DNA of 64,000 nucleotides from Syntrophomonadaceae bacterium (GTDB lineage: Bacteria > Bacillota > Syntrophomonadia > Syntrophomonadales > Syntrophomonadaceae). Each line of letters begins with the position of its first letter. Positions within the stretch are counted from its first letter, which is position 1. Under the pieces are notes generated by a model. The model saw only the letters and a program-made list of their open reading frames with translations, was not told where the DNA came from and did no database searches. Shown here piece after piece: positions 6,345 to 63,507 of this stretch. The stretch covers positions 446 to 64,445 of the forward strand of contig JAAYRQ010000032.1 in the NCBI GenBank assembly GCA_012518685.1. The letters are read 5' to 3'. Position numbers and translations under genes: made by a program.

Positions 6345-6350
6345 ATTCTG

Positions 6351-14331: not shown

Positions 14332-14610
14332 GTACCGTTTAGAAAAAGTATTATTAGCTCGAGGGGAAAACTAAATATATGAAGATATGAATACCTCGTA
14401 ACTAGACTTCGTATTGTGATATACCTGCTGCTCAAGTTCTTGAAAAAAGGGTACAGTGCCAAAATCACCTCCTGTTCAGTGGCACTTCTCGCCTCATCTG
14501 TGGGCTCGCCCCGTTTTTTCAACTCACTTTCGCAGGGTCTATCTACTCTACTTCGTCAACCAATTACTTCAATATTCATACCTTCCGTAATTTTAGTAAA
14601 GCTTTCTTGA

Positions 14611-36853: not shown

Positions 36854-37481
36854 GGTCATAATAGCTGACGACCATGTGCTAGTAAGAGAGGGTTTGAGGA
36901 AACTATTGGAACTAGACAATGGAATTAAGGTTACTACTGAAGTCGGTGATGGACAAGGTGCTATTAATATGGTACGCAGGGAACCACCTGACATAGTATT
37001 AATGGATGTTAATATGCCTGGTACTGATGGCATAACCGCAACCAGAGTAATCAAGCGGGAATTCCCAGCGGTTAAGGTAGTAGCTTTAACTATCTATGAG
37101 GATGAACAAGTAGTAGAAATGGTAAAGGCAGGAGTATCGGCTTATGTCTTAAAGGATGTTGCAGGTGCCGAACTTATAGATACCATTTATAAGGTCATGG
37201 ATGGGGAAGTGGTAATACATCCACGGGTAGCTAACCGTCTAATAAGGGAATTAAGTAAGGCAGAAAATAAAAATACGGCTTTAAAATTAACTCGTCGAGA
37301 AAAAGATGTGCTTGATTTGTTAGTGGGGGGCAATAGTAATAAGGATATTGCTGATATGATGTTTATAAGTGAAAAAACGGTTAAGAATCATTTGACAAGT
37401 ATTTTTAAGAAATTAGGGGTTAAGGATCGTACCCAGGCGGTAGTCTTTGCTATAAAAAACAATTTAGTTGACGAATTGTAG
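36837..37481 (+). CDS. degU: Response regulator DegU (NarL/LuxR family)
   Basis: Receiver domain (IIADDH..., VLMDVNMPG) plus a LuxR HTH (LTRREKDVLDLLVGGNSNKDIA). It overlaps the end of degS by 17 nt. Confidence 0.9.
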   Translation: MKEKIKVIIADDHVLVREGLRKLLELDNGIKVTTEVGDGQGAINMVRREPPDIVLMDVNMPGTDGITATRVIKREFPAVKVVALTIYEDEQVVEMVKAGVSAYVLKDVAGAELIDTIYKVMDGEVVIHPRVANRLIRELSKAENKNTALKLTRREKDVLDLLVGGNSNKDIADMMFISEKTVKNHLTSIFKKLGVKDRTQAVVFAIKNNLVDEL

Positions 37482-47843: not shown

Positions 47844-49082
47844 ATGATAATTAATCACAACTTAATGGCCATGAATACCCATAGACAACTAAGCTTGAAT
47901 AATGCAGCAGGTGCAAAATCCACCGAAAAATTATCTTCTGGTTTCAGAATTAACCGGGCAGGAGATGACGCAGCAGGTCTAGCTATCTCGGAAAAAATGA
48001 GAGGGCAAATTAGGGGACTTAATCAAGCTTCTAGGAACTCCCAAGATGGTATTTCTTTAATCCAAACTGCTGAAGGTGCACTTAATGAAACTCATGCCAT
48101 TTTGCAAAGGATGAGAGAATTAGCTGTTCAATCTGCGACTGATACTAATACCTCAGCTGATAGGGTTAATATCCAAGATGAAATTAATCAATTAACCAAA
48201 GAAATTACTAGGATTGCTGATACAACTGAATTCAACACCATGAAGCTTTTAGATGGCTCAAAAGGTGGCGGAGTAGCTACTGGGGTAGCAAATGTACAAA
48301 CAAATGCTGCATTGACTGCTTCAGGTGGTGCTGCCATTGCAGCAAGCACGACATTGCTAAAGCTCTTTGATACAGCAGGAAATAACTTAGGTATTGTAGC
48401 TGGAGATAAAATTACTATATCCTTTGTGAAAAATGGAGAACTTAACGAGAAAGTAGTTACAGTTGCTGCTGATACAGCATTATCTGCCTTAACTGCTACA
48501 GGTTCTTTTGCGACATCAGCAACCACTGGTGGAAGTCTAGTTTTTACTGCTAGTGGAGCCGGATTTGAAGGAGCGGTTCATGGAGTTACTATTAAGGTAG
48601 AGAGTGCAGATGGTGAAGTAAAAACTGCAGCAACTAATGCCCTATCAGCCTTTAAGGAGACTGTAGCTGCCCAAAATAAGAGACAGGACGGTACAGCTAC
48701 CTTGCAAATAGGGGCTAACGAGGGACAAGAAGTAAAACTGGCTATAGAAAATATCACAGCCAAAGCACTAGGGGTGGAAAACCTTCAAGTTGGTCAGCGT
48801 ACACAAGCTAGTGTAGCTATTAATGTTATTGACGGTGCTATAGTTAAGGTTTCGGCCGAAAGATCCAAATTAGGGGCTATGCAAAATCGGCTAGAACATA
48901 CTATCAAGAACTTAGACACTTCTTCAGAAAACTTACAAGCTGCAGAAGCTCGGATTAGAGACCTAGACATTGCTAAGGAAATGATGGAGTTTACTAAGAA
49001 TAGTATTCTTCAACAAGCTGCAACTGCAATGTTGGCACAAGCCAACCAAGTGCCACAATCAGTATTACAACTATTAAGATAA
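47844..49082 (+). CDS. hag: Flagellin
   Basis: N-terminus MIINHNLMAMNTHRQL and C-terminus QAATAMLAQANQVPQSVLQLLR, with a central Ala/Thr/Ser/Gly-rich variable domain. The ATG at 47844 is preferred over the track GTG at 47811. Confidence 0.96.
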   Translation: MIINHNLMAMNTHRQLSLNNAAGAKSTEKLSSGFRINRAGDDAAGLAISEKMRGQIRGLNQASRNSQDGISLIQTAEGALNETHAILQRMRELAVQSATDTNTSADRVNIQDEINQLTKEITRIADTTEFNTMKLLDGSKGGGVATGVANVQTNAALTASGGAAIAASTTLLKLFDTAGNNLGIVAGDKITISFVKNGELNEKVVTVAADTALSALTATGSFATSATTGGSLVFTASGAGFEGAVHGVTIKVESADGEVKTAATNALSAFKETVAAQNKRQDGTATLQIGANEGQEVKLAIENITAKALGVENLQVGQRTQASVAINVIDGAIVKVSAERSKLGAMQNRLEHTIKNLDTSSENLQAAEARIRDLDIAKEMMEFTKNSILQQAATAMLAQANQVPQSVLQLLR

Positions 49083-49102
49083 TTTATTAAATCGACCTTA
49101 AA

Positions 49103-49137
49103 AATAGCGAGGGCAAATGCTCTCGCTATTTGTTTTT
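49103..49137 (+). terminator. Rho-independent terminator after flagellin
   Basis: AATAGCGAG / CTCGCTATT stem followed by TGTTTTT. Confidence 0.8.
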
Positions 49138-49210: not shown

Positions 49211-49813
49211 GTGAAATTAATTCTGGATGCGGAAATTAAGGAATTTGACAATAATAAGGCTGGTATTGATAAGCTACTATCACTTATAGAGGAAAAAGTC
49301 TTTTCTTATCCAAATAAACTTTTTAGCCATCTACTTATAGATGGCATTGAAGTCTATGAAGGTTTTTCAGAGTATCTAGAAGATAACATTAAAAATGTTG
49401 GGGAAATACAGATGGTGTTTTTCACGATTAAAGAATATATTGCAGGAATATTGACTTCCACTAGTGAATACTTAACTAGGGCTATACCTGCCCTAGAGGA
49501 GTTAGCGAATAGCTTTTATAAGGAACCAGATACCACTAGCTGGCAACAAGTAGATAATCTGCTTGAAGGGATTAGCTGGTTAAACGAAACTTATAACACC
49601 ATCGATAATATACCTAATTTAGCTAATGTTTTTACAGAATATGAAAAATGGAATATATATTCTAAAAGCCTTAGGGAATTACAGGAGGTAATGCGGAACT
49701 TAGAAGAACCTATGGAATCTGGCGATTATGTTACGGTTGCCGATATAATCTTATATGAAATTAAAAGAGTATTGGAAAATATAAGGATTAATATACCTGT
49801 AGTTGAATTGTAA
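49211..49813 (+). CDS. Hypothetical protein, first gene of the flagellin glycosylation operon
   Basis: 200-aa acidic, helical ORF with GTG start, no TM segment and no motif I can recognise. It is tightly followed by maf. Confidence 0.6.
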   Translation: MKLILDAEIKEFDNNKAGIDKLLSLIEEKVFSYPNKLFSHLLIDGIEVYEGFSEYLEDNIKNVGEIQMVFFTIKEYIAGILTSTSEYLTRAIPALEELANSFYKEPDTTSWQQVDNLLEGISWLNETYNTIDNIPNLANVFTEYEKWNIYSKSLRELQEVMRNLEEPMESGDYVTVADIILYEIKRVLENIRINIPVVEL

Positions 49814-49824
49814 GGAGTATTAAT

Positions 49825-51684
49825 ATGATATTAGTGGATAATATAGTATTCATGAAGGACAACTTTCCGTCTATATGGGAAACATATCGGGATAGGGAGG
49901 ATATGCTAAATGCCGATTTGGTAACTGTAGAATCTTCCAAAGTAAAGGGCTATCCGTCTTTAGCTATTAATAAGGATGAAAAGACTTATTATATTCATAG
50001 TCGCTATAATCCCGAGCGAGAGGTTGCTACTATTATAGATAACTTTAATGGGGAAGAATATGAGCATGTCATATTTTATGGAATAGGATTAGGTTATCAT
50101 ATAGAAGCATTTTTGGAAAGATATCCACATCTAACCTTTTCCTTTTATGAACCTATCCCTGAAGTTTTTAGGGCTTATTTATCAAATTCTAAATTAAAAG
50201 ATTTACCTGTACAAGGGCTTAATGAAATAGTTGTAGAAAATTCCCCTATAGATGCAAATAATTTTTTAAATAAAATAGTAAAAAAATATAAGAAAATATT
50301 GTATTTTGATTTACCTAGTTATAAAAGTATATTCCCCAATAAACATAGCCGATTTGCCAAGTTATTTACGGAAATTGCCAGAGGACAGCTTAGTTCACTC
50401 GCCACCAATCTTACATTTGAAAAAAGGTGGATAATTAATTGCTTATTAAATTTTAGAGAGCTATTGGATACGCCTAATATAATTATGGAGAAGGCAGGGC
50501 AATTCAAGAATCTTCCCGCTATTATAGTCGCGGCAGGGCCGTCATTGGACTATGAAATAGAAAACCTAAAGCAGATTAAGGAAAATGGTCTGGCTTATAT
50601 ATTCTCCGTGGGCTCAGCTGTTAATTCCTTAATAGATGCAGGGATTTATCCCGATGCTCAGTGTGCTATTGACCCAGGGGAAGCCAATCAACAGTATGTG
50701 TTTGCACGAATAACTGAAGAAAGGATAGTGGACATTCCCTTAATATTTGGCAGTAGTATAGGGCATGAAGTTTTAGCTAATTATCCAGGGCAAAATAAGT
50801 TACATATGATTACTAGCCAAGATACCATATCATCTTATTTGTTAAAAGTAAATGATGGCAGGAAACTTGACGGGGTAATGGATGCACCTTCTGTAGCGGT
50901 AGTAACTTTGCAAATGCTTTATATACTAGGATTTAATCCTATAATACTAGTAGGGCAGAACCTAGCTTATAAAGATAATCGTCATTATGCAGATGGTATT
51001 GAATATGCCGATAGTATGCGGATTGATTCAAGTAAAACTGAAAGTTTAATGAGAATAAGGGATGTAGAAGGCAATGAAGTATATGCTAGTATTCCTTTTG
51101 AACGGATGCGTTTGGTCATGGAAGAATACATCAAATTAATGCCTGATACTCAAGTAATTAATACCACCCGTGGGGGGGCTCATATCGAAGGGACGGAATT
51201 TAGACATTTAGAAGAATTAATTCATACAAAAGTGTTAGGAAATACGATAGTAGATAAAGAATGGTATAAGTTGTCACCTACTGAATATGACTTAGAATAT
51301 ATTAATAAGCAATTTAAAAAGTTATATAAGGATTATCAAGTATTGGCAGAGGCTTTACTAAGTGTATTAGAAGTTTTGAATGAAATAAGTGCTTTAAAAG
51401 AAGCTAAAAATATAAAACAGCTGGATAAGTCTTGGGGAAAACTAGATAAGGCTTTTAAAAAGGTACAGAATAATCGTTTTTTTGATAAGGCAATTCGCCC
51501 CATGAACAGGGTAGCTTTTGAATTACTGCTTGCTAAGTTGCCAGATATTCGTTTTGAATCAGATTTGCTTAGAAAAGCAGAATTGATAACAGAAAGCTTT
51601 ACAGGGGTTATTTTAGCCTGTATCACTGATTTACAAATGGTGCAGGAAGAAATGGAGGAGATGGGGGAGTTACTAAATGCTTAA
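49825..51684 (+). CDS. maf: Motility-associated factor (Maf) flagellin glycosyltransferase family protein (DUF115/MptE-like core)
   Basis: Central motif AIIVAAGPSLDYEIENLK...FSVGSAVNSLIDAGIYPDAQCAIDP is typical of the Maf/DUF115 family. It lies next to flagellin and pse genes. Confidence 0.85.
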   Translation: MILVDNIVFMKDNFPSIWETYRDREDMLNADLVTVESSKVKGYPSLAINKDEKTYYIHSRYNPEREVATIIDNFNGEEYEHVIFYGIGLGYHIEAFLERYPHLTFSFYEPIPEVFRAYLSNSKLKDLPVQGLNEIVVENSPIDANNFLNKIVKKYKKILYFDLPSYKSIFPNKHSRFAKLFTEIARGQLSSLATNLTFEKRWIINCLLNFRELLDTPNIIMEKAGQFKNLPAIIVAAGPSLDYEIENLKQIKENGLAYIFSVGSAVNSLIDAGIYPDAQCAIDPGEANQQYVFARITEERIVDIPLIFGSSIGHEVLANYPGQNKLHMITSQDTISSYLLKVNDGRKLDGVMDAPSVAVVTLQMLYILGFNPIILVGQNLAYKDNRHYADGIEYADSMRIDSSKTESLMRIRDVEGNEVYASIPFERMRLVMEEYIKLMPDTQVINTTRGGAHIEGTEFRHLEELIHTKVLGNTIVDKEWYKLSPTEYDLEYINKQFKKLYKDYQVLAEALLSVLEVLNEISALKEAKNIKQLDKSWGKLDKAFKKVQNNRFFDKAIRPMNRVAFELLLAKLPDIRFESDLLRKAELITESFTGVILACITDLQMVQEEMEEMGELLNA

Positions 51685-52675
51685 CAATAAATCAATATTA
51701 ATCACGGGTGGAACTGGCTCATTTGGAAAGCATTTCACAGAAATGCTTTTAGAAAGGTATAATCCCCGAAGGATAATTATATATTCTCGGGACGAATATA
51801 AACAAGATGTAATGCAAAAAGAATTAGCACAAAAGTTTCCCGAACAAAGCTCTAAATTAAGGTTTTTCATCGGGGATGTTCGAGATAAGGACAGGCTATA
51901 TCGTGCTTTCAACGGGGTTGATTATGTAATTCATGCGGCAGCAATGAAGCAGGTGCCTGCCTGTGAATATAATCCATTTGAAGCGATAAAAACTAATATT
52001 CACGGAGCCCAAAATATTGTAGATGCTGCCTTAGACTGTGGGGTAAAAAAGGTAATTGCATTATCAACTGATAAAGCAGTTAATCCTATTAACCTTTACG
52101 GGGGTACCAAGCTAGTTTCCGATAAATTATTTATATCCGCCAATTCTTATAGTGGATTTAATGGAACTATCTTTGCAGTAGTAAGATATGGGAATGTGTC
52201 GGGGAGTAGGGGGTCAGTTATCCCGTTCTTTAGAGAACTTATCAATAAGGGTGAAAGGGAATTGCCCATCACTGATGTCAGAATGACTAGATTTTGGATG
52301 ACACTTGGTGAGGCAGTGGAATTAGTCATAAAAGCCTTAGAAGAAGCAAAAGGTGGAGAAACTTATGTATTTAAAAATCCATCTTATAAGGTAGTCGATA
52401 TTGCTGGGGCTATGAGCCCTACGGGTAAGATAAAAATTATAGGAATTAGGGAAGGCGAAAAATTACACGAAGTTATGATAACTAGTGATGATTCAAGAAA
52501 AACATACGATTATGGAGACCATTATATTATTTATCCTAACTATGTATGGTGGACAAAAGACAACTATTTTAAAGAGGGTGGCATTTTAATAGAGGATGGC
52601 TGGGAATATAATTCAGGTACTAATACTGAATGGCTAGATGTAGATATGCTTAAAGAGAAAATAAAGAAACTATAG
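51677..52675 (+). CDS. pseB: UDP-N-acetylglucosamine 4,6-dehydratase (inverting), PseB/FlaA1-like
   Basis: Motifs ILITGGTGSFG, AAAMKQVPACEYNP and LSTDKAVNPINLYGGTK. ATG overlaps the maf stop (ATGCTTAA). Confidence 0.9.
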   Translation: MLNNKSILITGGTGSFGKHFTEMLLERYNPRRIIIYSRDEYKQDVMQKELAQKFPEQSSKLRFFIGDVRDKDRLYRAFNGVDYVIHAAAMKQVPACEYNPFEAIKTNIHGAQNIVDAALDCGVKKVIALSTDKAVNPINLYGGTKLVSDKLFISANSYSGFNGTIFAVVRYGNVSGSRGSVIPFFRELINKGERELPITDVRMTRFWMTLGEAVELVIKALEEAKGGETYVFKNPSYKVVDIAGAMSPTGKIKIIGIREGEKLHEVMITSDDSRKTYDYGDHYIIYPNYVWWTKDNYFKEGGILIEDGWEYNSGTNTEWLDVDMLKEKIKKL

Positions 52676-52697
52676 CTTATAGTAAGGGGTATAAAAT

Positions 52698-53561
52698 ATG
52701 CAGGTGAAATTTATAGCTGAAGTATCCAGTAACCATAATCAAAATATAGAACGTTCTTTAGAATTCATAGATAAGGCGGCGGAAATAGGCTGCAGTGCGG
52801 TGAAGTTTCAGCTCTTTAAAATCGAGGAGCTTTTTGCACCGGAAATACTAGAGAAGAGTAAGGAACATCGCGAAAGAAAAAAGTGGGAGCTACCGGTCGA
52901 ATTTCTTCCAATCCTCAGTGAACGCTGCAAGGAAAGTTCGATTATGTTTTCCTGTACCCCTTTCTATTTAAAGGCTGTGGAGGAATTATATCCTTATGTA
53001 GATTTTTATAAAATTGCTTCATACGAACTGCTATGGGATGACTTATTAAAAGAATGTGCCTATACCAAAAAACCTATGGTCCTTTCTACGGGGATGGCAA
53101 CCATAGAAGAAGTAGCTAAGGCAGTAGAGGTAATAAAAAAAGCCGGCTGTACCGATTTAACCTTACTGCATTGTGTTTCCGGTTATCCTACACCCCTGGA
53201 AGAATGTAATCTCCAGGCAATTCAAACCCTTAGGGAAAACTTTCAATGCGAGGTAGGCTGGTCAGATCACTCCATACTGCCGGCAGTTATATATCGGGCG
53301 ATTAGCGCCTGGCAGGCTAGGATGATAGAATTCCATCTAGACTTAGACCGGCAGGGGGCCGAATATGCCGCAGGGCACTGTTGGCTACCTGAAGAAATAC
53401 AAGCAGTCATACAGACGGTTAGGGATTTTTATAGTGCAGATGGGGATGGAGTAAAGCTACCTGTTCCTAGTGAATTAGCCGACAGGGAATGGAGAGCTGA
53501 CCCCACTGATGGTCTTAGACCCCTTTTGAGTATGCGCCGGAAATGGAAGGGGGAGAAATAA
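52698..53561 (+). CDS. NeuB/PseI/SpsE-like sugar-phosphoenolpyruvate condensing enzyme lacking a SAF domain
   Basis: TIM-barrel NeuB-like N-terminus (FIAEVSSNHNQ..., AVKFQLFK, KIASYE, LLHCVSGYPTP). At 287 aa it ends before the C-terminal SAF/antifreeze-like domain. Confidence 0.7.
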   Translation: MQVKFIAEVSSNHNQNIERSLEFIDKAAEIGCSAVKFQLFKIEELFAPEILEKSKEHRERKKWELPVEFLPILSERCKESSIMFSCTPFYLKAVEELYPYVDFYKIASYELLWDDLLKECAYTKKPMVLSTGMATIEEVAKAVEVIKKAGCTDLTLLHCVSGYPTPLEECNLQAIQTLRENFQCEVGWSDHSILPAVIYRAISAWQARMIEFHLDLDRQGAEYAAGHCWLPEEIQAVIQTVRDFYSADGDGVKLPVPSELADREWRADPTDGLRPLLSMRRKWKGEK

Positions 53562-54331
53562 TGTCAACTGTCGCAATAATTCAGGCCCGTATGAGTTCCA
53601 GCCGTTTGCCGGGCAAGGTGCTTAATAATATAGTAGGCAAACCCATGTTAGCCCACATTGTAGAAAGATTAGCCAGGGTAGCATTAATTAATGAGATTGT
53701 CGTAGCTACTTCTAATGAAATTTCAGATCAACCGATTTATGATTTTTGTCAGCAAAATAATATTAATTGTTACCGAGGCAGTTTGAATGATGTATTAGAT
53801 AGGTTTTATAAAACAGCTATGGAGTATGAAGCCGGAAGAATTATAAGGATTACCGGAGATTGTCCCTGTGTTGATCCTGAACTTGTTACGCAGTTAATTA
53901 ACCTCTCTATCGAAAAACAATATGATCATGTGGGTATCGCAACCGGGGCGGGAGCAATATTTGATGAGGCGCGTTTCCCTAATGGGCTGGATGCTGAATC
54001 TTTTAATATGCAGTCCCTAGAAAGAGCCTGGAAGGAAGCCAAGAAAACTACAGACCGTGAACATGTAACCCCCTATATTTGGCGCAATAAAGATATTTTC
54101 AAATGTGGCAGCCTAAAGCCGGATAAAGATTATTCATATATCAGGTTAAGTGTTGATCATGGAGAAGATTTCGAACTGATAACTAAGATTTTTGAAGAAT
54201 TGTACAACCCCCAAAAGCCTTTTTTAATGAATGACATTATAGAATTTTTATATCAAAATCCGGAACTACTTAAGTTAAACCAGGATTTTATAGGTAAAGA
54301 AGGTTATCGGAACTTATGGAAAGATAAATAA
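53561..54331 (+). CDS. Cytidylyltransferase (SpsF/PseF-like, CTP_transf_3 type)
   Basis: N-terminus AIIQARMSSSRLPGKVL, plus RITGDCP. ATG overlaps the upstream stop (TAATG). Confidence 0.8.
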   Translation: MSTVAIIQARMSSSRLPGKVLNNIVGKPMLAHIVERLARVALINEIVVATSNEISDQPIYDFCQQNNINCYRGSLNDVLDRFYKTAMEYEAGRIIRITGDCPCVDPELVTQLINLSIEKQYDHVGIATGAGAIFDEARFPNGLDAESFNMQSLERAWKEAKKTTDREHVTPYIWRNKDIFKCGSLKPDKDYSYIRLSVDHGEDFELITKIFEELYNPQKPFLMNDIIEFLYQNPELLKLNQDFIGKEGYRNLWKDK

Positions 54332-54362
54332 ATTTTAGAAGACATATTAGGATGGATTATAA

Positions 54363-55400
54363 ATGGTGAAAAAAAGGATTTCGCTACTATTTCGTTGCGA
54401 TGGTGACGAAAAAATCGGATTAGGACATGTGGTACGTTGCTTAGCCTTAGCTGAGGAATTAAGCATTGAACATAATTGTCAGGTGACCTTTGCTGTTTGT
54501 AGTGGTAAAGCTGGAATAGAGATGGTAAAAAAACATGGACATTCATTGCTTACTATAGAAAGTGACATAGAAAACATTAGCGAAGAAGATTTCCTTGAAA
54601 TGGCAGTAGAAAAAACCGCTTGTGATGTCATTATAATGGACTTTCGTAAGGAAATTTCTTTGGACTTCCTGCTATCACTTAAAAAACAGGGAATTTTACT
54701 AGTTGATATAGATGATCCTGATGATAAAAGGCTAGTGGCTGATTTAGCCTTTTATCCACCAGTGCCGCAGGTTAAAAAAATGGATTGGTCAGGCTTTCAG
54801 GGACAACTTTTTAGTGGCTGGGAATGGGTTATCTTGCGTAAAGAGTTCACTGGTGCAGCTAAGCAGCAGCGGATTCCTAATGATAGATTACAGATACTTG
54901 TAACTATGGGGGGCAGCGATCCAGCAGGTTATACTCTAAAAACCATGGAGGCTTTAGAATTGCTGGAAGAAGAATTTGATACTACTGTAGTACTGGGTAA
55001 AGCCTTTTCCGGGAGAAAAGAATTACAAAACTTCCTGACTAGTGCAAAACGTGAATTTACAATACTAAATAATGTAGAAAATATGGCTGAAGTAATGGCT
55101 AGTGCCGATTTAGCAATTGCCACTTTTGGTGTTACTGCTTATGAACTAGCTTACATGGGAATCCCTGCACTATATATATGTTTAACTGATGACCATGCAG
55201 AGTCATGCCAAGTGTTCGTGGAGGCAGGGTTGGGGATTAAAGTGGAAAATATAAATAGTATTTATAATACAGATATAATGAGACAATTAATTTCTCAGAA
55301 AGGCAAAAAAGATGTAATGGATTTTAGCCCTGCAAAAAGAAATGATAATAATGGGGTAAAAAGTCTTGCAGCAAAAATAAAAGACCAGTTTAAACTTTAA
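54363..55400 (+). CDS. pseG: PseG/SpsG-like UDP-sugar hydrolase (GT-B fold)
   Basis: N-terminus FRCDGDEKIGLGHVVRCLALAEEL is the typical PseG signature. C-terminal half has GGSDP... Confidence 0.75.
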   Translation: MVKKRISLLFRCDGDEKIGLGHVVRCLALAEELSIEHNCQVTFAVCSGKAGIEMVKKHGHSLLTIESDIENISEEDFLEMAVEKTACDVIIMDFRKEISLDFLLSLKKQGILLVDIDDPDDKRLVADLAFYPPVPQVKKMDWSGFQGQLFSGWEWVILRKEFTGAAKQQRIPNDRLQILVTMGGSDPAGYTLKTMEALELLEEEFDTTVVLGKAFSGRKELQNFLTSAKREFTILNNVENMAEVMASADLAIATFGVTAYELAYMGIPALYICLTDDHAESCQVFVEAGLGIKVENINSIYNTDIMRQLISQKGKKDVMDFSPAKRNDNNGVKSLAAKIKDQFKL

Positions 55401-55530
55401 CTTATCAGCTAATCTTGCATACTAAAAGATTGCTTTTTAGTGTTTGATCATACTAAATAAATTGCTGATTATAATTGCAAAAAAGAAATTAAAGCATTTG
55501 ATGTGGATTTTAAAATTGGGAGGTGACTTT

Positions 55531-56778
55531 TTGAATAATAGAATCGCTTGGCGTAAAATGGAAAAAAAAGGTGGGGCCGTTTATGGTCATCCTGCCTTTA
55601 CCTATTATCGGGCCTGCCCAATATGCAATAATATTGATTCCAGACCTGTATGGGGATTAAAGCAATTTCAATTTTTTATAGATAATGCCTCGTTGAGCAA
55701 GCAAATTGATATTAATGTACATCAATGCAATGATTGTTATGCATTATACATGAATCCCAACTACACCCAACTCGGTTTTGAGCACCTTTTTTCTCTAGCC
55801 AGTTGTTCTTACGGTTCATTTGATTTCGATTTTAGGGTAAATGAGGAAATCGAATGGCTGAAACAGCGTGATTTATTAAAGCCTAACATACATGTATTGG
55901 ATGTTGGTTGCTATAAAGGTGATTTTTTAAATTATTTGCCAGGGTATACTCGTTGTACGGGTGTTGATATTGATAAAACAGCTATTGATATGGCACAAAG
56001 TAGATATGGATCATCGCGAATGAATTTTATTTGCGCTGATTTTGAATCCTTTCAACTAACTGATTTTCCCGATCTTATCACAATGTTTCACGTGTTGGAG
56101 CACTTGCCTAATCCCTTAAATGTATTAACTAAATTAAGAGAATTAGCCGATAAGAATACCCAATTAGTCATAGAAGTACCAATTATTGAAAACGGGTTTA
56201 CAAATGATATAAATGGCTTCTTTTCGGTACAGCATATGACTCACTTCAGCCGTAATAGCTTGAGGAATATAACTCAAATTGCAGGTTGGCGAATAGAAGA
56301 AATGTTTGAACAAAAAGATTACAATGGATGTAGGGTAGTATGTAAGCCCGATATCCAAAATTGCGATATTACAAGAAATATTAATGAAATATCTCTATGT
56401 TATCAATATTTATCTCATTGGTACCAAAATATTGTAAACATTGAAAATGTACTAAAAGGACATCTGGATAATAATCAATGGGTAATATGGGGAGCTGGTT
56501 TACATACAGAATTTATTTTCCAGGTTTCCTCATTTTTCCTTGGGGCGGGCAATGAGCGTGAATATATTATTATAGATAACGATAAAGGGAAACAGGGAAA
56601 AAGCTGGCGATCTATAAATATTTATAGTCCTGATGCTCTTCGAGGGATTGAATTAGATAAAGTAAAATTCTTAATATCAAGCTATGGAAGCCAAACAAGT
56701 ATTGAAGATTACTTATTACAAGAAGGGGTGCCTCAAGAAAATATAGTAAAGTTATATGAACAATTAAGGGTATATTGA
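55531..56778 (+). CDS. Class I SAM-dependent methyltransferase with N-terminal zinc ribbon and C-methyltransferase-type C-terminal domain
   Basis: CPICN...CNDCYALYMNP, SAM motif I VLDVGCYKGDF and a C-terminal Rossmann-like WVIWGAGLHT...IIIDNDKGKQGKSW...INIYSP. TTG 55531 lies 5 nt after GGGAGGTG. The start is uncertain. Confidence 0.72.
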   Translation: MNNRIAWRKMEKKGGAVYGHPAFTYYRACPICNNIDSRPVWGLKQFQFFIDNASLSKQIDINVHQCNDCYALYMNPNYTQLGFEHLFSLASCSYGSFDFDFRVNEEIEWLKQRDLLKPNIHVLDVGCYKGDFLNYLPGYTRCTGVDIDKTAIDMAQSRYGSSRMNFICADFESFQLTDFPDLITMFHVLEHLPNPLNVLTKLRELADKNTQLVIEVPIIENGFTNDINGFFSVQHMTHFSRNSLRNITQIAGWRIEEMFEQKDYNGCRVVCKPDIQNCDITRNINEISLCYQYLSHWYQNIVNIENVLKGHLDNNQWVIWGAGLHTEFIFQVSSFFLGAGNEREYIIIDNDKGKQGKSWRSINIYSPDALRGIELDKVKFLISSYGSQTSIEDYLLQEGVPQENIVKLYEQLRVY

Positions 56779-56820
56779 TTAATAAACAAAAAGGATACAA
56801 GTGAAATAACGGAGGCGGTT

Positions 56821-57573
56821 ATGAATAAAAACAATAAGAAAGTCGCACTAGTTACCGGGGGAAGCAGAGGAATTGGATGTGGTATAGTAAGATCTTTAGC
56901 AGAAGCTGGGTATAATGTTGCCTTTACATATAATACAAATAAGGAATTAGCGGAAAGATTAGTACAGGATATCGGAAAATTTGATAGCAGAGTAATAGCA
57001 GTGCAAATGTCTTTACAGGATAAAAACACAATAAAAAAAGCTTTAAAAAGTATTACTGACGAATTTGGTATGATTAATATACTAATAAATAACGCAGGAA
57101 TGGCCCAAGAAAAACCATTTATAAACATAACAGGACAAGATTTTGATGATATGATGGCGGTTAATCTGAAAGGACCTTTCATTTTATGCCAAGAAACAAT
57201 ACCGAATATGGTAAGTAATGGCTGGGGCAGAATTATTAATATTTCCTCCATAGGTGGTCAATGGGGAGGATACAATCAAGTTCATTACGCTGCCGCTAAG
57301 GCAGGATTAATTAATTTGACCCGTTCATTGGCCCGTATTTATAGCTCTAATGGTATCACTATAAATGCAGTAGCTCCTGGTCTCATACATACCGATATGA
57401 TTACTCAAGAAATTAATTCGGAATCTGGAAGGGATAAGATAAAAAATATTCCCGCTGGAAGAATAGGGGAAACAAAAGAGGTAGCAGATGTAGTAAAATT
57501 TTTAGTAAGCGAAGAAGCCAGTTATATTACCGGACAGACTATTAATGTAAATGGCGGAATGTATTTTGTTTAA
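56821..57573 (+). CDS. Short-chain dehydrogenase/reductase (FabG/PtmA-like)
   Basis: Motifs TGGSRGIG, NNAG and the catalytic YAAAK. Confidence 0.9.
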   Translation: MNKNNKKVALVTGGSRGIGCGIVRSLAEAGYNVAFTYNTNKELAERLVQDIGKFDSRVIAVQMSLQDKNTIKKALKSITDEFGMINILINNAGMAQEKPFINITGQDFDDMMAVNLKGPFILCQETIPNMVSNGWGRIINISSIGGQWGGYNQVHYAAAKAGLINLTRSLARIYSSNGITINAVAPGLIHTDMITQEINSESGRDKIKNIPAGRIGETKEVADVVKFLVSEEASYITGQTINVNGGMYFV

Positions 57574-57589
57574 AAAGGAGGTATTAGGG

Positions 57590-59299
57590 TTGGATGGAGC
57601 ACAGATTATTAAAAATGCAATTATTAAAAACAAGTTGCAACGGGTTTTTGTTTATCCTGGGGGAACTATTGCCCCAATAATAGATGCCTTAAATAATGAG
57701 GGCATAGGGGTGTTTTGTGCTAGGCATGAGCAAGGTGCTGCCTATGCGGCACTTGCAGTAGCGCGAATAACAGGTTGTCCCCAGGTAGTATTAGTAACTT
57801 CAGGTCCAGGGGTCACAAATGTGCTTACTTCCATAGCTGATGCTTATTTCGATTCTATCCCTTTGATTTTGATAACTGGACAAGTTGCAACCGCGGATTT
57901 AAGTGGACCTAGCCTTCCGGTCAGGCAAAGAGGATTCCAGGAAGTAAATACGGTATCCATTATGAAATCGGTAACTAAAGCACAGTTTTTGGTGAAAGAT
58001 GTTTTACACCTGGAAAAGGCACTGGAAGAAGCCTTTTTTATCAGTCAGGAGGGAAGACCGGGGCCAGTGGTGATAGATATACCCATGGATGTGCAACGGG
58101 GGAATATAAATAATTCCCTAACTAATATAAACAGGCAAGACAAGATTAATAATAAAAAAAATCTTAAATGGATAGATGCGGAAAGTATAGAACAGGTTAA
58201 AAATAAAATTTGTTCCGCAACCCGTCCGGTTATAATTGCCGGGCAAGGTTTATTAACTGCCAAAGCCCATGAAGAATTCAGGGAATTTGTAGATAAAACC
58301 AATATTCCAGTAAGTCATAGTTTGCTGGGGTTAGGAGCCTATCCTACCCAATCTCCTATTGCGATAGGCTTTCATGGTCATACTGGCAATCGTTACGCTA
58401 ATAAAACTATATATGAAGCTGATTTAGTATTAGTACTAGGTTCTAGGCTGGATATACGGCAAACAGGTTCCTGTTATGACCAATTTTCACCCCAAGCTTA
58501 TGTAATTCGAGTAGATATAGATGAAGGCGAGATTGGCAGTTCGCGTATTAAAACAGATTTTTCTCTTTGTACTGATGTTAAAATATTTTTATCCCAATTA
58601 AACAAGTCACTAAATGATATTACTATACCCGAGTGGGCTGAATGGTGGGATTGTATAAATAAATGGCGAACTGATTATCCTTTAACCTATCGGGATGATG
58701 ATAAGGTAAAACCACAATCTATTATTGAGATTACCAATGACTTAACCGAAAATTCCCCAGTTGTTTGCATTTCGGGTGTTGGTTCACATCAACAATGGGT
58801 GGCAAGACATTTTGATTTTGATTATCCTGAAAGGATATGGCTTACTTCCGGGGGACATGGGGCTATGGGTTTTGATTTACCGGCAGCTATTGGTGCCCAG
58901 CTAGCATGTCCGGATAAAATGGTTATTTGTTTTGTAGGCGATGGTTCATTGCAGATGAATATACAGGAACTTGCTACCATAGCTGAATATAATCTACCGA
59001 TTAAGATAATTGTGTTAGATAACAAACGTCTCGCAATGGTTTCACAATTTCAGATGCTAAATTGGGGAGAAGATCCTACTTGTGGAAATAAGACCAATCC
59101 CCCTTTCGCTGACTTAGCATCAGTATATGGTCTTAGAGGATACCTGGTTGATAATAATCAGGAATCCCTAGCTATATTAAAAGAGGCCCTATTTTTTAAC
59201 GGTCCTTGTTTAGTACATTGTATTGTTGATGAAAATGAGGATGTTATCCCGATGTTGTTAGGTGGGCAACCTATGTCGAAGATGTGGCCATATGAGTAA
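57590..59299 (+). CDS. Thiamine-diphosphate-dependent enzyme (acetolactate synthase large subunit / YerE-like)
   Basis: Three-domain ThDP fold: N-terminal VFVYPGG...HEQGAAYAA and a C-terminal GDGS...N Mg-ThDP motif (VGDGSLQMNIQELAT...LDN). TTG 57590 lies 8 nt after AAGGAGG. Confidence 0.88.
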   Translation: MDGAQIIKNAIIKNKLQRVFVYPGGTIAPIIDALNNEGIGVFCARHEQGAAYAALAVARITGCPQVVLVTSGPGVTNVLTSIADAYFDSIPLILITGQVATADLSGPSLPVRQRGFQEVNTVSIMKSVTKAQFLVKDVLHLEKALEEAFFISQEGRPGPVVIDIPMDVQRGNINNSLTNINRQDKINNKKNLKWIDAESIEQVKNKICSATRPVIIAGQGLLTAKAHEEFREFVDKTNIPVSHSLLGLGAYPTQSPIAIGFHGHTGNRYANKTIYEADLVLVLGSRLDIRQTGSCYDQFSPQAYVIRVDIDEGEIGSSRIKTDFSLCTDVKIFLSQLNKSLNDITIPEWAEWWDCINKWRTDYPLTYRDDDKVKPQSIIEITNDLTENSPVVCISGVGSHQQWVARHFDFDYPERIWLTSGGHGAMGFDLPAAIGAQLACPDKMVICFVGDGSLQMNIQELATIAEYNLPIKIIVLDNKRLAMVSQFQMLNWGEDPTCGNKTNPPFADLASVYGLRGYLVDNNQESLAILKEALFFNGPCLVHCIVDENEDVIPMLLGGQPMSKMWPYE

Positions 59300-60515
59300 A
59301 ACATTACTAATAGTTAGCGGTGGAGCAGAGGCAATACCGGGAATATTGAAAGCAAAGGAAATGGGGCTACATGTGGTTGTTAGCGACTATAATCCCGATG
59401 CTCCCGGATTTTTGTATGCTGATGATCGAATAATTGCTAGCACTTATGATGTGGAAGAGACAGTTGGTGCTGCAAAGGAGTTTCATGAAAAGGTCCGACC
59501 TATTGATGGGGTAATCTGTGTGGCCTCGGATGTGCCCCTAACAGTGGCTAGTGTGGCTGAAAAATTGGGTTTACCGGGCTTAAACGTAGAAACTGCCAGA
59601 TTAGCTAGTGATAAACTGGCCATGAAAGATAAATTTTGTGCAACAGGAATTCCTGTACCCTGGTATAAGGCAGTATTTTCAGCTGAGGAATTACGATCTC
59701 TTTGTATGGAAAAGGGTTTTTCGCTTATTATAAAGCCCGTAGATAGCCGGGGAGCAAGGGGAGTACTTTTAATTAAATCAGACACCGACTTGAAAGAGGC
59801 TTTTAATACCGCACTTGAAAATTCGCCTACGGGCAGGGTTATGGTAGAGGAGTTCATAAGTGGTCCGCAGATAAGCACAGAAGCGGTCATAGTGGATGGG
59901 ACAGGATATAATCTGGGATTCGCAGACAGGAATTATGAAGAAATGGAAAAATATGCTCCGCACATAATTGAAAACGGAGGAACCCAACCCTCAATTTTGC
60001 CTGCACCTATCCAAAAAGATATAGCCAATTTAGCGATCAGGGCAGGAAAGGCTTTGGGTGTTACTAATGGTATAGTTAAAGGTGATATGGTATTTGGACC
60101 CAGGGGTCCTATGGTTATAGAGGTTGCTACTAGATTATCGGGGGGGTATTTTAGTTCAGATCAAATACCCTTGCATACGGGTGTGGACATTTTAAAAGCT
60201 GCTATTAAACTAGCTTTAGGGCAAAGGGTTAATCCGCACGAACTGGAAAGGACACGTGATCAAGCAGTAGCCATTCGTTATTTCTTTCCTCCGGAAGGAT
60301 TAATAAAAAAGCTGCCCGATATTTCGGCAGTAAAACAAATGCCGGGGGTTAATAAGGTTGTGTTAGCAGTTGCAGAAGAGGAAGTAATTGAAAAACAAAC
60401 GAATCATACCAAAAGGGCCGGCTGCGTAATTACGGTGGCTGTAAAACGTGAAGATGCAGTTCGATATGCCCGGGATGTTGTTGCTAAAGTGGAGCAAGAA
60501 TTTATAATTAGCTAG
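59292..60515 (+). CDS. ATP-grasp domain ligase
   Basis: Pre-ATP-grasp Rossmann N-terminus, then KPVDSRGARGV and VEEFISGPQISTE (ATP-grasp core). ATG overlaps the end of the ThDP gene by 8 nt. Confidence 0.85.
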   Translation: MSKTLLIVSGGAEAIPGILKAKEMGLHVVVSDYNPDAPGFLYADDRIIASTYDVEETVGAAKEFHEKVRPIDGVICVASDVPLTVASVAEKLGLPGLNVETARLASDKLAMKDKFCATGIPVPWYKAVFSAEELRSLCMEKGFSLIIKPVDSRGARGVLLIKSDTDLKEAFNTALENSPTGRVMVEEFISGPQISTEAVIVDGTGYNLGFADRNYEEMEKYAPHIIENGGTQPSILPAPIQKDIANLAIRAGKALGVTNGIVKGDMVFGPRGPMVIEVATRLSGGYFSSDQIPLHTGVDILKAAIKLALGQRVNPHELERTRDQAVAIRYFFPPEGLIKKLPDISAVKQMPGVNKVVLAVAEEEVIEKQTNHTKRAGCVITVAVKREDAVRYARDVVAKVEQEFIIS

Positions 60516-60527
60516 GGGTTAATATTA

Positions 60528-62495
60528 ATGAAACTGGTTTACTCATTTTTCCATCTTAATCTGGCCTTCTCCTCTATCGAAGAGGAACAACGGGCAGAAG
60601 TCATGGCGAAATGCTACTGGCCTTTGTTGCATTTAATTGAAGATTTAAAGATTTTGGTAGGAATTGAAGCTACTGTTTATACCCTGGAGAACATAGCTCT
60701 TATTGATCATAGGTGGATCGATAAGATTAAGGAATTAATCGGGCAGGGCTTAGTGGAGTTTGTAGGAAGCGGCTATGCCCAAATAATTGGTCCTTTGGTG
60801 CCGGCCTATGTGAATAAGGCCAATTTATACCTAGGTAATCAGGGTTATGAGCGTATATTAGGGATTAGGCCGCAAATAGCCTTAGTTAATGAACAAGCTT
60901 ATTCGGCCGGACTTGTTGAGATATATAAAGAAGCTGGATATGAAACCATTATCATGGAATGGAATAATGCGGCTCATCTTCACCCAAACTGGCAGGAAGA
61001 GTTACAGCATTTTCCCCAGTACATATTAGGCAGTGATGGCAGTCATCTCCCTATAATATGGAACAATTCGGTAGCCTTCCAAAAGTTTCAGCGTTATGCT
61101 CATGGCGATATGGAATTAGAAGAATACCAGGAGTATTTAGATAAATATTTTGCAATTGGGGAGGGAATGTTTTCCCTGTACGGAAATGATGTGGAGATAT
61201 TTGACTTTCGTCCGGGGCGCTATCATACCGAAGCGATTTTGGTTGGCGAAAGTGAATGGCAGCGTATTAATAGGCTATATAGAATGCTTAAAAATGATAA
61301 AAGGGTTAAATTAGTTAAACCAAGTGAAGTCTTAGGTCTAATGAAGGAAAAACCGGCGGGCAATATATTATCCCTAGAAGTACCTGCCCAACCGATTCCG
61401 GTTAAAAAACAAGCTAAGTACAATGTGACCCGCTGGGCGGTTACGGGACGGGATGATTTAGGGATTAATACTAGATGTTGGCGTATTTATGAAGTACTAG
61501 TTAATAACAATGCTTTAGAGGAAGAATGGCAGGAACTCTGCTATTTATGGAGCAGTGATTTTCGTACCCATATTACTGAAAAACGCTGGCAAAAATATTT
61601 GACCCGTTTAAATAATTTTGAAAACTATCTAAGGAAAAAATACCCGGGGGGAAAGCTGAAATCGTCTGATATTGGGGAAAAAATCAATAAATCAAATCTT
61701 ATGGATGTAAAAGAGCAGGGTAGATATATAATCGTAAAGACACCGCAATGTGACGTAAGCCTTGATTCTCAAAGGGGATTAGTTATTAACCATTTTAAGG
61801 TGGGTGAAGGGGAGACTAATTTGTTTGGTACCCTTGCTCATGGTTATTTTGATGATATTTCCGTAGATATGGATTGGTATAGCGGGCATAGTATAGTCGA
61901 ATGTCTGGGTAAGCCTAAAATTACTGATTTGAATCCGGCCCGGGATGTTGAGATAAACTATTACCCGGATGGCCTAATGATTAGCGGAGCAGTTGATACG
62001 AGCGAAGGAAGGGTATATAAATCAATTAAGGTTTTTGCTGATAGTCCTGAACTAACTATACATTATCGTTATCTTTGGGGGGCCCTTCCCCCGGCAACCA
62101 TACGCTGTGCCCATATTACTCTTAATCCGGAAGCTTTTTCCCGCCAAAGCCTCTACTACGCAACTCATAATGGGGGCACCAGTAAAGAGGTATTCCCCTT
62201 GAATGGTATGGAAGTAAATTTAGGAACATCCGTTTCCTTTTTAGTTTCTTCTAACGGGTGTTTAGGTATGACTGAAGGCTGGATCGAGATAGGGGACGAT
62301 AGGCAGGCTTTGCAGATCCGGATTGATAAAACCGAAGCTGCTTTAGTCGGTTTATTAAAATACCAAGAAGTAAAGGACAAGTATCTTCTGCGTTTAGCTT
62401 TTTCTGCGGGAGAATGGGATGAAACCAGGAAGAATAATCAGGTTGATATAGAATCATTAGAATTTACAGTCAGGATTAAGGCAGTAACCAAGTAG
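60528..62495 (+). CDS. Glycoside hydrolase family 57-like / deacetylase-fold protein (tentative)
   Basis: The N-terminal ~300 aa resemble the GH57 (beta/alpha)7 barrel (FFHLNLAFSSI, GSGYAQIIGPL, ALVNEQAYS). The C-terminal 350 aa are unassigned. Confidence 0.45.
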   Translation: MKLVYSFFHLNLAFSSIEEEQRAEVMAKCYWPLLHLIEDLKILVGIEATVYTLENIALIDHRWIDKIKELIGQGLVEFVGSGYAQIIGPLVPAYVNKANLYLGNQGYERILGIRPQIALVNEQAYSAGLVEIYKEAGYETIIMEWNNAAHLHPNWQEELQHFPQYILGSDGSHLPIIWNNSVAFQKFQRYAHGDMELEEYQEYLDKYFAIGEGMFSLYGNDVEIFDFRPGRYHTEAILVGESEWQRINRLYRMLKNDKRVKLVKPSEVLGLMKEKPAGNILSLEVPAQPIPVKKQAKYNVTRWAVTGRDDLGINTRCWRIYEVLVNNNALEEEWQELCYLWSSDFRTHITEKRWQKYLTRLNNFENYLRKKYPGGKLKSSDIGEKINKSNLMDVKEQGRYIIVKTPQCDVSLDSQRGLVINHFKVGEGETNLFGTLAHGYFDDISVDMDWYSGHSIVECLGKPKITDLNPARDVEINYYPDGLMISGAVDTSEGRVYKSIKVFADSPELTIHYRYLWGALPPATIRCAHITLNPEAFSRQSLYYATHNGGTSKEVFPLNGMEVNLGTSVSFLVSSNGCLGMTEGWIEIGDDRQALQIRIDKTEAALVGLLKYQEVKDKYLLRLAFSAGEWDETRKNNQVDIESLEFTVRIKAVTK

Positions 62496-62526
62496 TAGCT
62501 ATTATTAAAGTGATTGGGGAATAAAT

Positions 62527-63507
62527 ATGGGAAAAACCTATTTAATCACCGGCGTAGCCGGCTTCATCGGTTATCATTTAGCGGAAAAAATGCTAGAACT
62601 AGGCATGACCGTAATAGGGCTTGATAATCTAAATGACTATTATGATGTAAATCTAAAACGTAGTCGCCTAGATATATTAGGAGGATTTGATAATTTTAAT
62701 TTTTTCAAGGGTGACATAGCTGATAAGGTTAAAGTAGGCAGTTTATTTAAAAAATATAATTTTGATATCGTGATTAACTTAGCTGCTCAAGCAGGAGTCC
62801 GTTATAGCATTGAAAACCCTGATGTATATATCCAAGCTAATATTATCGGTTTTTATAATATCTTGGAAGCCTGCCGCTATAATAAAGTAGAACATCTTGT
62901 CTATGCATCCTCCAGCTCCGTTTATGGAGCCAATAAAAAGACCCCTTTTTCTACTGAAGATATGGTAGATAAACCAGTAAGCCTCTATGCAGCGACCAAG
63001 AAATCTAATGAGCTAATGGCTTATACCTATAGCCATCTCTATAATATCCCTACTACGGGATTACGGTTTTTTACCGTATATGGGCCTTACGGAAGACCAG
63101 ATATGGCTTATTTTTCATTTACCAGGGCCATCTTAGAAAATAAACCTATTAAGATATTTAATAATGGAGATATGTATAGGGACTTTACTTATATAGATGA
63201 TATTATAACCGGTATTATTAACATTTTACCTAAGCCACCGCAAGAGGATGAAACAGGTGCTCCATATAAACTATATAATATAGGCAATAATCGTCCGGAG
63301 AAATTAATGGATTTTATTCATACCCTTGAAAAGTGCTTAGGGAAAGAAGCAATTAAAGAATATCACCCTATGCAGGCCGGGGATGTTTATCAGACCTATG
63401 CCGATGTAGCAGACTTAATGAAGGATTTTAACTTTAAACCCGATACCCCTATTGATATAGGGCTAGGTAAATTTGTGGAATGGTATAGGGAATATTATGA
63501 GATTTAA
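62527..63507 (+). CDS. NAD-dependent nucleotide-sugar epimerase (UDP-glucuronate 4-epimerase-like)
   Basis: Motifs [21 protein letters not shown] and YAATKKSNE, adjacent to ugd. Confidence 0.85.

Follow-up and report, generated by a model that had tools for sequence, protein, structure and literature searches.

What do four closely spaced genes for a zinc-ribbon S-adenosylmethionine (SAM) methyltransferase (MT), a FabG-like short-chain dehydrogenase/reductase (SDR), an acetohydroxyacid synthase (AHAS)-like thiamine diphosphate (ThDP) enzyme and an ATP-grasp ligase make together, when they are found behind the flagellin glycosylation genes of a Syntrophomonadaceae bacterium? The four genes lie at 55531-60515 on the + strand of the window, by which the whole 64-kb stretch of DNA analysed is meant (contig JAAYRQ010000032.1, positions 446 to 64,445). 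The contig belongs to a metagenome-assembled genome (MAG) and occurs in biogas-fermenter metagenomes. In a preliminary description made from the sequence, the genes were regarded as a module without precedent, attached to a canonical pseudaminic acid (Pse) operon. Both points had to be given up. A short NeuB-family synthase (NeuB-short), a cytidylyltransferase (CT), a PseG-like hydrolase and a GH57-like protein encoded in the same gene row share the same conserved cassette; this larger cassette, with the four genes as its core, is widespread and genetically known from Shewanella oneidensis. The locus is very probably a cassette of the Sfm type that provides flagellin with a modified nonulosonate.

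The precedent is sfmABCDE of S. oneidensis MR-1 (SO_3261-SO_3265), a flagellin modification cluster beside the Maf gene SO_3259, which its original description took for a Shewanella oddity (Bubendorfer et al. 2013, PMC3765264). The cluster encodes a 290-amino-acid (aa) NeuB-domain protein (SfmA), a 581-aa thiamine pyrophosphate (TPP) enzyme (SfmB), an SDR resembling 3-oxoacyl-acyl carrier protein reductases (SfmC), a 395-aa SAM MT (SfmD) and a 412-aa ATP-grasp protein (SfmE) (PMC3765264). Following in-frame deletion of sfmA-D, flagellin was unmodified and motility was lost; deletion of sfmE resulted in a partial flagellin mass shift, with motility kept (PMC3765264). The earlier statement that no characterised flagellin pathway has a ThDP-dependent step therefore fails genetically, SfmB (SO_3262) having been described in 2013, and still stands for the enzymology, of which there is none.

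The correspondence with MR-1 was established by a homologue search seeded with a metagenome locus in sfm order (L156; loci are cited by our own numbers), which returned an MR-1 protein by name (P0184). The MR-1 chromosome segment (L174) carries Maf-2, GlfM (89 aa), SfmA, SfmB, SfmC, SfmD and SfmE, followed by flanking genes for two more MTs on the opposite strand, for a GH57-like protein of 638 aa, for a CT of 574 aa and for a DegT protein. Near full length, NeuB-short was 64% identical to SfmA, the SDR 50% to SfmC and the ATP-grasp protein 45% to SfmE; the ThDP enzyme was 44% identical to SfmB over 568 aa (E = 1e-168), and the GH57-like protein 40% identical to the 638-aa protein. The ThDP enzyme and SfmB have the signature motifs VRQxGFQE, PMDVQ, VSQFQ and MWPY in common, and the clade that contains the window enzyme also takes in the sfm-order loci of the L156/L172 type. 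Likeness was lower for the Maf proteins (21% identity to MR-1 Maf-2 over 244 aa) and for the MT, which was 24% identical to SfmD over 308 aa (E = 3e-13) in an alignment that begins after the Zn-ribbon region of the window MT. NeuB-short, the ThDP enzyme, the SDR and the ATP-grasp protein are read as orthologues of SfmA, SfmB, SfmC and SfmE, and the MT as a more distant counterpart of SfmD. At least two MT types are used by the cassettes, a long Zn-ribbon form and a form of ~305 aa.

Residues 5-259 of the 574-aa MR-1 protein aligned with the CT and residues 264-505 with the PseG-like protein of the window, indicating that SO_3269 (L174 19194-20918) is a CT-PseG fusion; an 804-aa equivalent is encoded in L093 (7031-9445). 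This accounts for the MR-1 cytidylyltransferase that had been noted as oversized in a 2023 preprint (10.1101/2023.12.03.569772). In the same preprint, So3261 was identified as pseI, pseC was found to be required (a pseC deletion mutant loses glycosylation) and the biosynthesis of the 538 Da derivative was still unsolved. A PseH orthologue was not found in MR-1. A full-text literature search yielded no other paper tying ThDP or ATP-grasp enzymes to Pse.

Relatives of the locus were first collected by exact-match and homologue look-ups with the ThDP protein, resulting in ThDP proteins of 54-79% identity on contigs of unrelated bacteria, all in the same neighbourhood (L006, L009, L011, L093). A metagenome scan seeded with the subfamily motif GVGSHQQW / ARHFDFDY added 80 loci. 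Gene presence was mapped by tblastn, and the counts given here refer to loci that were not de-replicated and include several near-identical pairs. The common order was (PseB-DegT)-NeuB-short-CT-PseG-like-MT-SDR-ThDP-ATP-grasp-GH57-like. Where the flanks were long enough (39 loci), 36 loci had the SDR gene beside the ThDP gene and 36 had the ATP-grasp gene adjacent to the ThDP gene or one gene away, both arrangements being found together in 34/39. The GH57-like gene was located within 3.5 kb in 23 of 27 loci. Among 17 loci with long flanks, CT was present in 14, NeuB-short and PseG-like in 13 each, PseB in 11, DegT in 10, a class-III aminotransferase in 9 and an aldo-keto reductase in 8; PseB and DegT/PseC lay side by side in 10 of these 17, as they do in MR-1. 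No PseH-type acetyltransferase was found inside the annotated cassette blocks of L006, L009, L011, L093 and L174. A tblastn search of plasmids returned only annotated ilvB/G/I (38-40% identity) and no cassette member. As judged from these gene maps, the conserved unit is NeuB-short, CT, PseG-like, MT, SDR, ThDP, ATP-grasp and GH57-like.

The cassette was found in Firmicutes-type anaerobes, in marine metagenomes and in soil and freshwater samples. Most cassette loci are polysaccharide loci, not flagellar: Maf was present in 1/17 and flagellin in 2/17 of the long-flank loci, and in L006 and L009 the cassette lies amid genes for a Wzx flippase, UDP-glucose dehydrogenase and glycosyltransferases (GT2) or a polysialyltransferase-like gene. 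Linkage to flagellin or Maf was seen in L011 and L093 and likewise in MR-1. In a marine lineage (L096, L099, L154, L128, L132 and L133; marine/Tara samples) the order is ThDP-SDR-ATP-grasp-GH57, and the cassette is enlarged by a second, divergent ATP-grasp gene and by genes for a class-III aminotransferase and an aldo-keto reductase. The ThDP proteins of this lineage, 569 aa long, are very common in ocean metagenomes, with 248 members in one of their clusters. In the flagellin-linked locus L093, genes for a PIG-L-type de-N-acetylase and a formyltransferase are inserted between the ATP-grasp and GH57-like genes (12995-14620), which suggests an exchange of N-acetyl for N-formyl on the same sugar.

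The ThDP enzyme was compared with IlvB using annotated ilvB/G/I products and IlvB from 22 genomes as outgroup; the matches listed in a scan of genome contigs were all to housekeeping IlvB, at 37-41% identity. In a neighbour-joining tree the 24 cassette ThDP proteins were separated from IlvB in 100/100 bootstraps, between-group identity being at most 43%. The TPP_enzyme_N, M and C domains were all recognized, and the score against TIGR00118 was 520.4 bits, under the cutoff of 538.35. Next to the ThDP gene no ilvN or ilvC was found, its neighbours being the SDR and ATP-grasp genes. On the basis of tree and gene context, the protein is assigned to a distinct clade and is not a housekeeping IlvB.

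Residues were mapped by alignment to yeast and plant AHAS structures and to 21 orthologues. The catalytic Glu (E60) and the Mg/ThDP motif are retained, and so is an invariant Arg (R303) that corresponds to yeast R380. In the acceptor pocket (yeast numbering), K251 is replaced by Met and W586 by Phe, and 6-7 residues are inserted before the active-site FQE, where an invariant RQ(R)GFQE is found, RQRGFQE standing in place of GTDAFQE. A C-terminal MWPY is conserved among the orthologues. We take the functions of K251, W586, R380 and the catalytic Glu to be those assigned in the AHAS literature. Since the Arg is kept and the pocket residues are changed, the acceptor is read as different and carboxylate-bearing: the enzyme would carry out AHAS-type chemistry with an acceptor that is probably larger and more polar and still bears a carboxylate.

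For the ATP-grasp protein (59292-60515, +), an L-amino-acid-ligase (LAL)-type enzyme, scores exceeded the Pfam cutoffs for ATP-grasp_3 (PF02655, 53 bits), LAL_C2 (PF18603, 50 bits) and ATPgrasp_N (PF18130, 34 bits). Its neighbours in the PDB are 3vot, 4wd3 and BacD and include L-amino-acid ligases. The SDR (56821-57573, +) gave 213 bits with adh_short_C2 and 255 bits with the FabG model TIGR01830, below the cutoff of 298.

The MT (55531-56778, +) scored 72 bits against Methyltransf_23, and its Cys4 motif, CPIC...CNDC, does not vary among 12 orthologues. It had been described as having TylC3-type architecture. Single-sequence searches gave no support for this: Methyltransf_13 and Methyltransf_14 were not matched in Pfam even at E<=10, and a PDB search for TylC3-like domains was negative. 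Support came from a profile of the 12 sequences, which matched MtmC (4rv9), a D-mycarose 3-C-methyltransferase of the TylC3 type, at E = 6e-9 (profile positions 27-383 of 412, chain residues 11-389), taking in both the Zn ribbon and the C-terminal Rossmann-like domain, and TcaB9 at E = 2e-6. Methyltransf_14-like domains were also seen in L134, in a radical-SAM protein (5475-6830) and an FkbM-type MT (6848-7966), and suggest a substrate (nucleotide-sugar)-binding module shared among tailoring enzymes.

The GH57-like protein (60528-62495, +) matched PF03065 in its N-terminal half (60 bits). Alone, it had no match in a PDB sequence search; its family profile matched the catalytic domain of the Thermococcus litoralis 4-alpha-glucanotransferase (1k1w) at E = 5.7e-6. 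All of 20 orthologues keep E122 and D221, and E122 aligns with the Glu of 'LTERVW' in 1k1w; E122 and D221 are presumably the counterparts of the nucleophile Glu and the acid-base Asp of GH57 enzymes. No homology was detectable for the C-terminal ~380 aa. At E<=1e-30, 511 representatives were retrieved from 1.84 billion 50%-identity clusters, and the protein seems to be specific to the cassette.

The glycan of MR-1 provides the chemical frame. Its core of 274 Da, C11H18N2O6, was read as mono-N-acetyl Pse and carries a basic group, and to it is added an outer, nitrogen-free moiety of 236/250/264 Da, that is, 236 Da with 0-2 methyls, at least one of them an O-methyl (PMC3765264). The outer moiety was "easily cleaved in source" and gave no oxonium ion; the 274 fragment kept the basic group (PMC3765264). 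Such a glycan makes it reasonable, as had been proposed earlier, that the product of the window differs from Pse5Ac7Ac. From the published accurate masses the 236 Da part was derived as C9H16O7. Glucosylglycerate and Kdn-type residues were considered for this part and ruled out by the accurate masses. Several of the remaining candidates (an acetolactate-derived diol acid, a deoxy-nonose, a methyl-octose and a branched heptonic acid) fit C9H16O7, the composition being non-discriminating.

We propose, with a probability of about 0.45, that the ThDP enzyme and SDR (with the MT) build a hydroxy acid, which the ATP-grasp enzyme ligates to the sugar amine that is otherwise acetylated by PseH. AHAS makes alpha-hydroxy-beta-keto acids, FabG-type SDRs reduce 3-oxo groups and LAL-type ATP-grasp enzymes convert a carboxylate to an amide; these chemistries and the near-inseparability of the ThDP, SDR and ATP-grasp genes led to the proposal. 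Six steps are envisaged. PseB would form UDP-4-keto-6-deoxy-HexNAc, which a PseC-type aminotransferase, encoded elsewhere in the genome, would convert to the 4-amino sugar. There being no PseH acetyltransferase, the amine would be left free; that such an amine would be available is deduced from the usual presence of PseB and PseC and the lack of PseH-type genes in the annotated cassette blocks. In the third step, the AHAS-like enzyme would join hydroxyethyl-ThDP from pyruvate to a 2-keto-acid acceptor, giving an alpha-hydroxy-beta-keto acid. The SDR would then reduce the beta-keto group and the MT methylate the intermediate, after which the ATP-grasp enzyme would activate the carboxylate and form an amide on the sugar's free amine, which is to become N7 of the nonulosonate. 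Finally, the PseG-like protein, NeuB-short and CT would complete and CMP-activate the sugar, and Maf would transfer it to Ser/Thr of flagellin. The mechanism predicts a mono-N-acetyl Pse-like core (274 Da) with a methylated polyhydroxy-acyl group, instead of Pse5Ac7Ac. Steps one, two and six are based on family assignment and MR-1 genetics; steps three to five are those that we infer.

The MR-1 spectra, with no oxonium ion from the outer moiety and a basic 274 fragment, could be explained by a gamma- or delta-hydroxy-acyl amide that is lost as a neutral lactone. A hydroxyacyl nonulosonate, which fits the proposal, occurs on the flagellin (FlaB) of Treponema denticola, whose glycan is given as a 2-methoxy-4,5,6-trihydroxyhexanoyl nonulosonic acid (Kurniyati 2017, as cited in PMC13439194). 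By our own arithmetic, its mass corresponds to 274 + 176 Da.

Several points weigh against ligation of a hydroxy acid. The MR-1 substituent, C9H16O7, is larger than the C5 acid of a plain acetolactate route. A role confined to the side chain predicts that mutants in sfmB-D phenocopy the sfmE mutant; instead they lose all modification, so that dead-end intermediates or a strict specificity of the downstream enzymes have to be assumed in addition. The in-source lability of the outer moiety was not read as that of an amide by the MR-1 authors (PMC3765264). The NDP-sugar (nucleoside diphosphate sugar) C-methyltransferase architecture suggests that the MT acts on a nucleotide sugar and not on a free acid. 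The amine acceptor is an assumption here, there being no PseC in the window, and the GH57-like protein has no step in the mechanism. It is possible, though doubtful, that the C-C bond formation of the AHAS-like enzyme creates a new nine-carbon, nitrogen-free unit, in MR-1 of composition C9H16O7 with 0-2 methyls, that is joined to the Pse core. Candidates for such a unit are a branched 2-C-(1-hydroxyethyl)-3-deoxy-aldonic acid, a higher-carbon sugar and a branched sugar.

The same genes can be read in other ways. If the ThDP enzyme worked as YerE does, it would place a C2 unit from pyruvate on the 4-keto carbon of the PseB product and the SDR, like YerF, would reduce the acetyl branch; the TylC3-like MT may then C-methylate beside the keto group, and NeuB-short would extend the hexose to a branched nonulosonic acid. 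This agrees with the presence of PseB and the lack of a PseC-type aminotransferase in the window, with the full-length homology of the MT to NDP-4-keto-hexose 3-C-methyltransferases and with the Arg-rich insertion beside FQE, which could bind a nucleotide diphosphate; that MR-1 shows no glycosylation at all when sfmB, sfmC or sfmD is missing also fits on-pathway steps. However, PseB and DegT/PseC are neighbours in more than half of the long-flank loci and in MR-1, where the loss of glycosylation in the pseC mutant implies that the 4-keto group is aminated, and the MR-1 core has the composition of mono-N-acetyl Pse, with no surplus carbons. The Arg with which AHAS holds the carboxylate of its acceptor is invariant, and the ThDP and SDR genes are coupled to one for an amide-forming ATP-grasp enzyme, for which pathways of the yersiniose type have no use. 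Branching of the hexose is less favoured than the ligation of a hydroxy acid, and we regard it as unlikely. The ligase could instead add an amino acid that the MT N-methylates, as in Leg5GluMe7Ac of Clostridium botulinum, with the ThDP enzyme and SDR supplying or altering the amino-acid skeleton. LAL_C2 and the L-amino-acid ligases among the nearest solved relatives speak for this, as does the class-III aminotransferase of 9/17 cassettes, which could make an amino acid from a keto acid. Given that the window is without a class-III aminotransferase, that the MR-1 moiety is free of nitrogen and its methyls include an O-methyl, and that the MT resembles sugar C-methyltransferases and not N-methyltransferases, an aminoacyl group has a poor chance of being the product.

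Two further explanations concern the place of the genes. The cassette might here serve a cell-surface polysaccharide, together with the downstream epimerase and other genes, its position behind maf being incidental. The mostly non-flagellar setting of the metagenome cassettes, with Wzx, polysialyltransferase-like, GT2 and UDP-glucose dehydrogenase neighbours, is in favour of this, and an internal promoter could lie in the gap of 130 nt 5' of the MT gene. On the other side, the window has next to Maf no nonulosonate synthase and no activating enzyme other than NeuB-short and CT, both cassette members; the block from 49211 to 63507 is co-directional, with short gaps and no intergenic terminator; and versions linked to flagellin and Maf recur in L011, L093 and MR-1, in the last with proven function. 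A purely polysaccharide role is improbable, if slightly less so than an aminoacyl product. Hardly to be credited is a housekeeping IlvB lying here by chance. TIGR00118 is indeed the best NCBIfam similarity of the ThDP enzyme, and its identity to annotated ilvB/G/I is 38-40%; yet it scores below that model's cutoff, stands apart in the tree without adjacent ilvN/ilvC, carries the two pocket substitutions and the insertion, and sits in a conserved glycan cassette whose MR-1 counterpart, when sfmB is deleted, has a flagellin-modification phenotype.

The gene row extends over 47.8-63.5 kb on the + strand, all genes being co-directional and closely spaced. The flagellin gene (47844-49082), encoding the presumed glycan acceptor with typical flagellin N- and C-termini, is followed by a 200-aa open reading frame (ORF; 49211-49813), the Maf-type flagellin glycosyltransferase (49825-51684; MptE-like 125 bits, Maf_flag10_N 25 bits) and PseB, an inverting UDP-GlcNAc 4,6-dehydratase (51677-52675; TIGR03589, 530 bits, cutoff 408). 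NeuB-short (52698-53561; 287 aa, PF03102, 214 bits) has no SAF domain and is below the equivalog cutoffs, with 186 against 340 for PseI and the NeuB cutoff also missed. The CT (53561-54331) is an SpsF/KdsB-like CTP_transf_3 protein (PF02348, 121 bits) and not PseF-like (TIGR03584, 29 bits, cutoff 206). The PseG-like UDP-sugar hydrolase (54363-55400) just passes its model (TIGR03590, 158.5, cutoff 153.55). No DegT/PseC-type aminotransferase homologue was found anywhere in the window, though PseB is present. These searches in Pfam and NCBIfam confirmed the upstream genes of the preliminary description as well as the four + strand ORFs downstream with their domains. The row ends with an ORF for an NAD-dependent sugar epimerase/dehydratase-family protein (62527-63507), whose membership of the cassette is uncertain; L009, L093 and L098 have an epimerase-family homologue behind the GH57-like gene, and in L006 and L094 such a homologue is on the opposite strand.

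The MT gene starts at TTG 55531, behind a ribosome-binding site (GGAGGTGA), and the N-termini of its orthologues align at the same point. The longest ORF for the ThDP enzyme begins at 57551; the gene probably starts at TTG 57590, behind AAGGAGGT, and ends at 59299, giving 569 aa as in the NCBI record. With that start, the overlap of the SDR and ThDP genes becomes an artefact of the longest ORF and is probably not real. The stop of the ThDP gene and the start of the ATP-grasp gene do overlap, by 8 nt (ATGAGTAA).

Directly 3' of the flagellin gene, a 13-bp terminator-like hairpin with a T-run was found at 49102-49131 (+), so that the glycosylation genes probably need a promoter of their own. From 49211 to 63507 every gene has the same direction, gaps are at most 130 nt and no intergenic terminator-like site was found. 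A search with sigma-D/sigma-28-type patterns and a generic promoter scan gave nothing above chance; transcription units were therefore deduced from spacing and from the absence of terminators. The co-directional block behind flagellin and maf, free of intergenic terminators, and the orthology to the flagellin-modifying sfm genes bear out the link to flagellin glycosylation that had been suggested at the outset.

The 200-aa ORF had no Pfam match. Its last ~40 aa resemble an 87-aa DUF8042 ORF that L011 has in the corresponding place (pairwise 30%, E = 7e-5), and GlfM of MR-1 (SO_3260, 89 aa), which is encoded beside maf-2 and is the specificity factor of Maf-2, has a weak DUF8042 match. The ORF may thus encode a GlfM-like Maf accessory factor with an N-terminal extension, the likeness being confined to the C-terminal ~40 aa. 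Upstream of flagellin, genes for DegS/DegU-like regulators, FlgN, FlgK, FlgL, FliW and FliD were found, the DegS/DegU-like two-component pair being located at 35657-37481 (+), just upstream of the late flagellar genes. Farther away, a polysaccharide pyruvyl-transferase-like ORF (14817-15893, +) is 24% identical to the PS_pyruv_trans protein of L011 over 95% of its length and hints at further surface-glycan genes in the window.

Flagellin glycans built on nonulosonic acids control filament assembly, motility and immune recognition, and they owe their diversity mainly to the side chains. The present comparison makes of the Sfm cassette a conserved and widespread unit in place of a Shewanella oddity. 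The window itself is one more member of a system that has been known genetically since 2013 and is biochemically unsolved; many sets of orthologues are now at hand for enzymology, and testable substrates are defined. If a nine-carbon unit is indeed made, glycan tailoring by ThDP enzymes would gain a new class, one that would extend over hundreds of bacterial lineages, abundant marine bacteria among them, and concern flagella as well as surface polysaccharides.

Compared with the canonical Pse pathway of Campylobacter and Helicobacter (PseB-C-H-G-I-F), the window has a PseB equivalog, a marginal PseG, a NeuB-family synthase, a cytidylyltransferase and Maf. It differs in lacking PseC and PseH, in a synthase without SAF domain and in a CT of the KdsB/SpsF kind, and it adds the ThDP enzyme, SDR, MT, ATP-grasp enzyme and GH57-like protein. 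With TylC3, TcaB9 and MtmC, the MT shares the Cys4 Zn ribbon, the class I SAM domain and the C-terminal Rossmann-like domain, at low identity and without a single-sequence match to Methyltransf_13 or Methyltransf_14; these enzymes are C-methylating, whereas the methyls detected in MR-1 are O-methyl groups on the outer moiety. In yersiniose biosynthesis, the ThDP flavoenzyme YerE puts a C2 branch on a CDP-4-keto sugar and the reductase YerF acts next. The likeness to this pair, drawn from its description, lies in an AHAS-superfamily ThDP enzyme and a reductase beside a dehydratase that forms a 4-keto sugar, as in the window; the cassette differs by its ATP-grasp ligase, its usual 4-aminotransferase and an MR-1 core without added carbons. 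The T. denticola FlaB glycan, compared as a glycan alone and as cited, is likewise a flagellin nonulosonate in which an O-methylated polyhydroxy-acyl group replaces an N-acetyl.

The closest known system is sfm of MR-1. The hosts differ, a Gram-positive-type anaerobe (the Syntrophomonadaceae MAG) as against S. oneidensis, and so does the gene order, NeuB-ThDP-SDR-MT-ATPgrasp in MR-1 and NeuB-CT-PseG-MT-SDR-ThDP-ATPgrasp-GH57 in the window. CT and PseG-like are two genes in the window and fused in MR-1, which has two additional MTs and, unlike the window, an adjacent PseC. The parts list is the same in both: short NeuB, ThDP enzyme, SDR, MT, ATP-grasp enzyme, GH57-like protein, CT, PseG-like protein and Maf, near flagellar genes.

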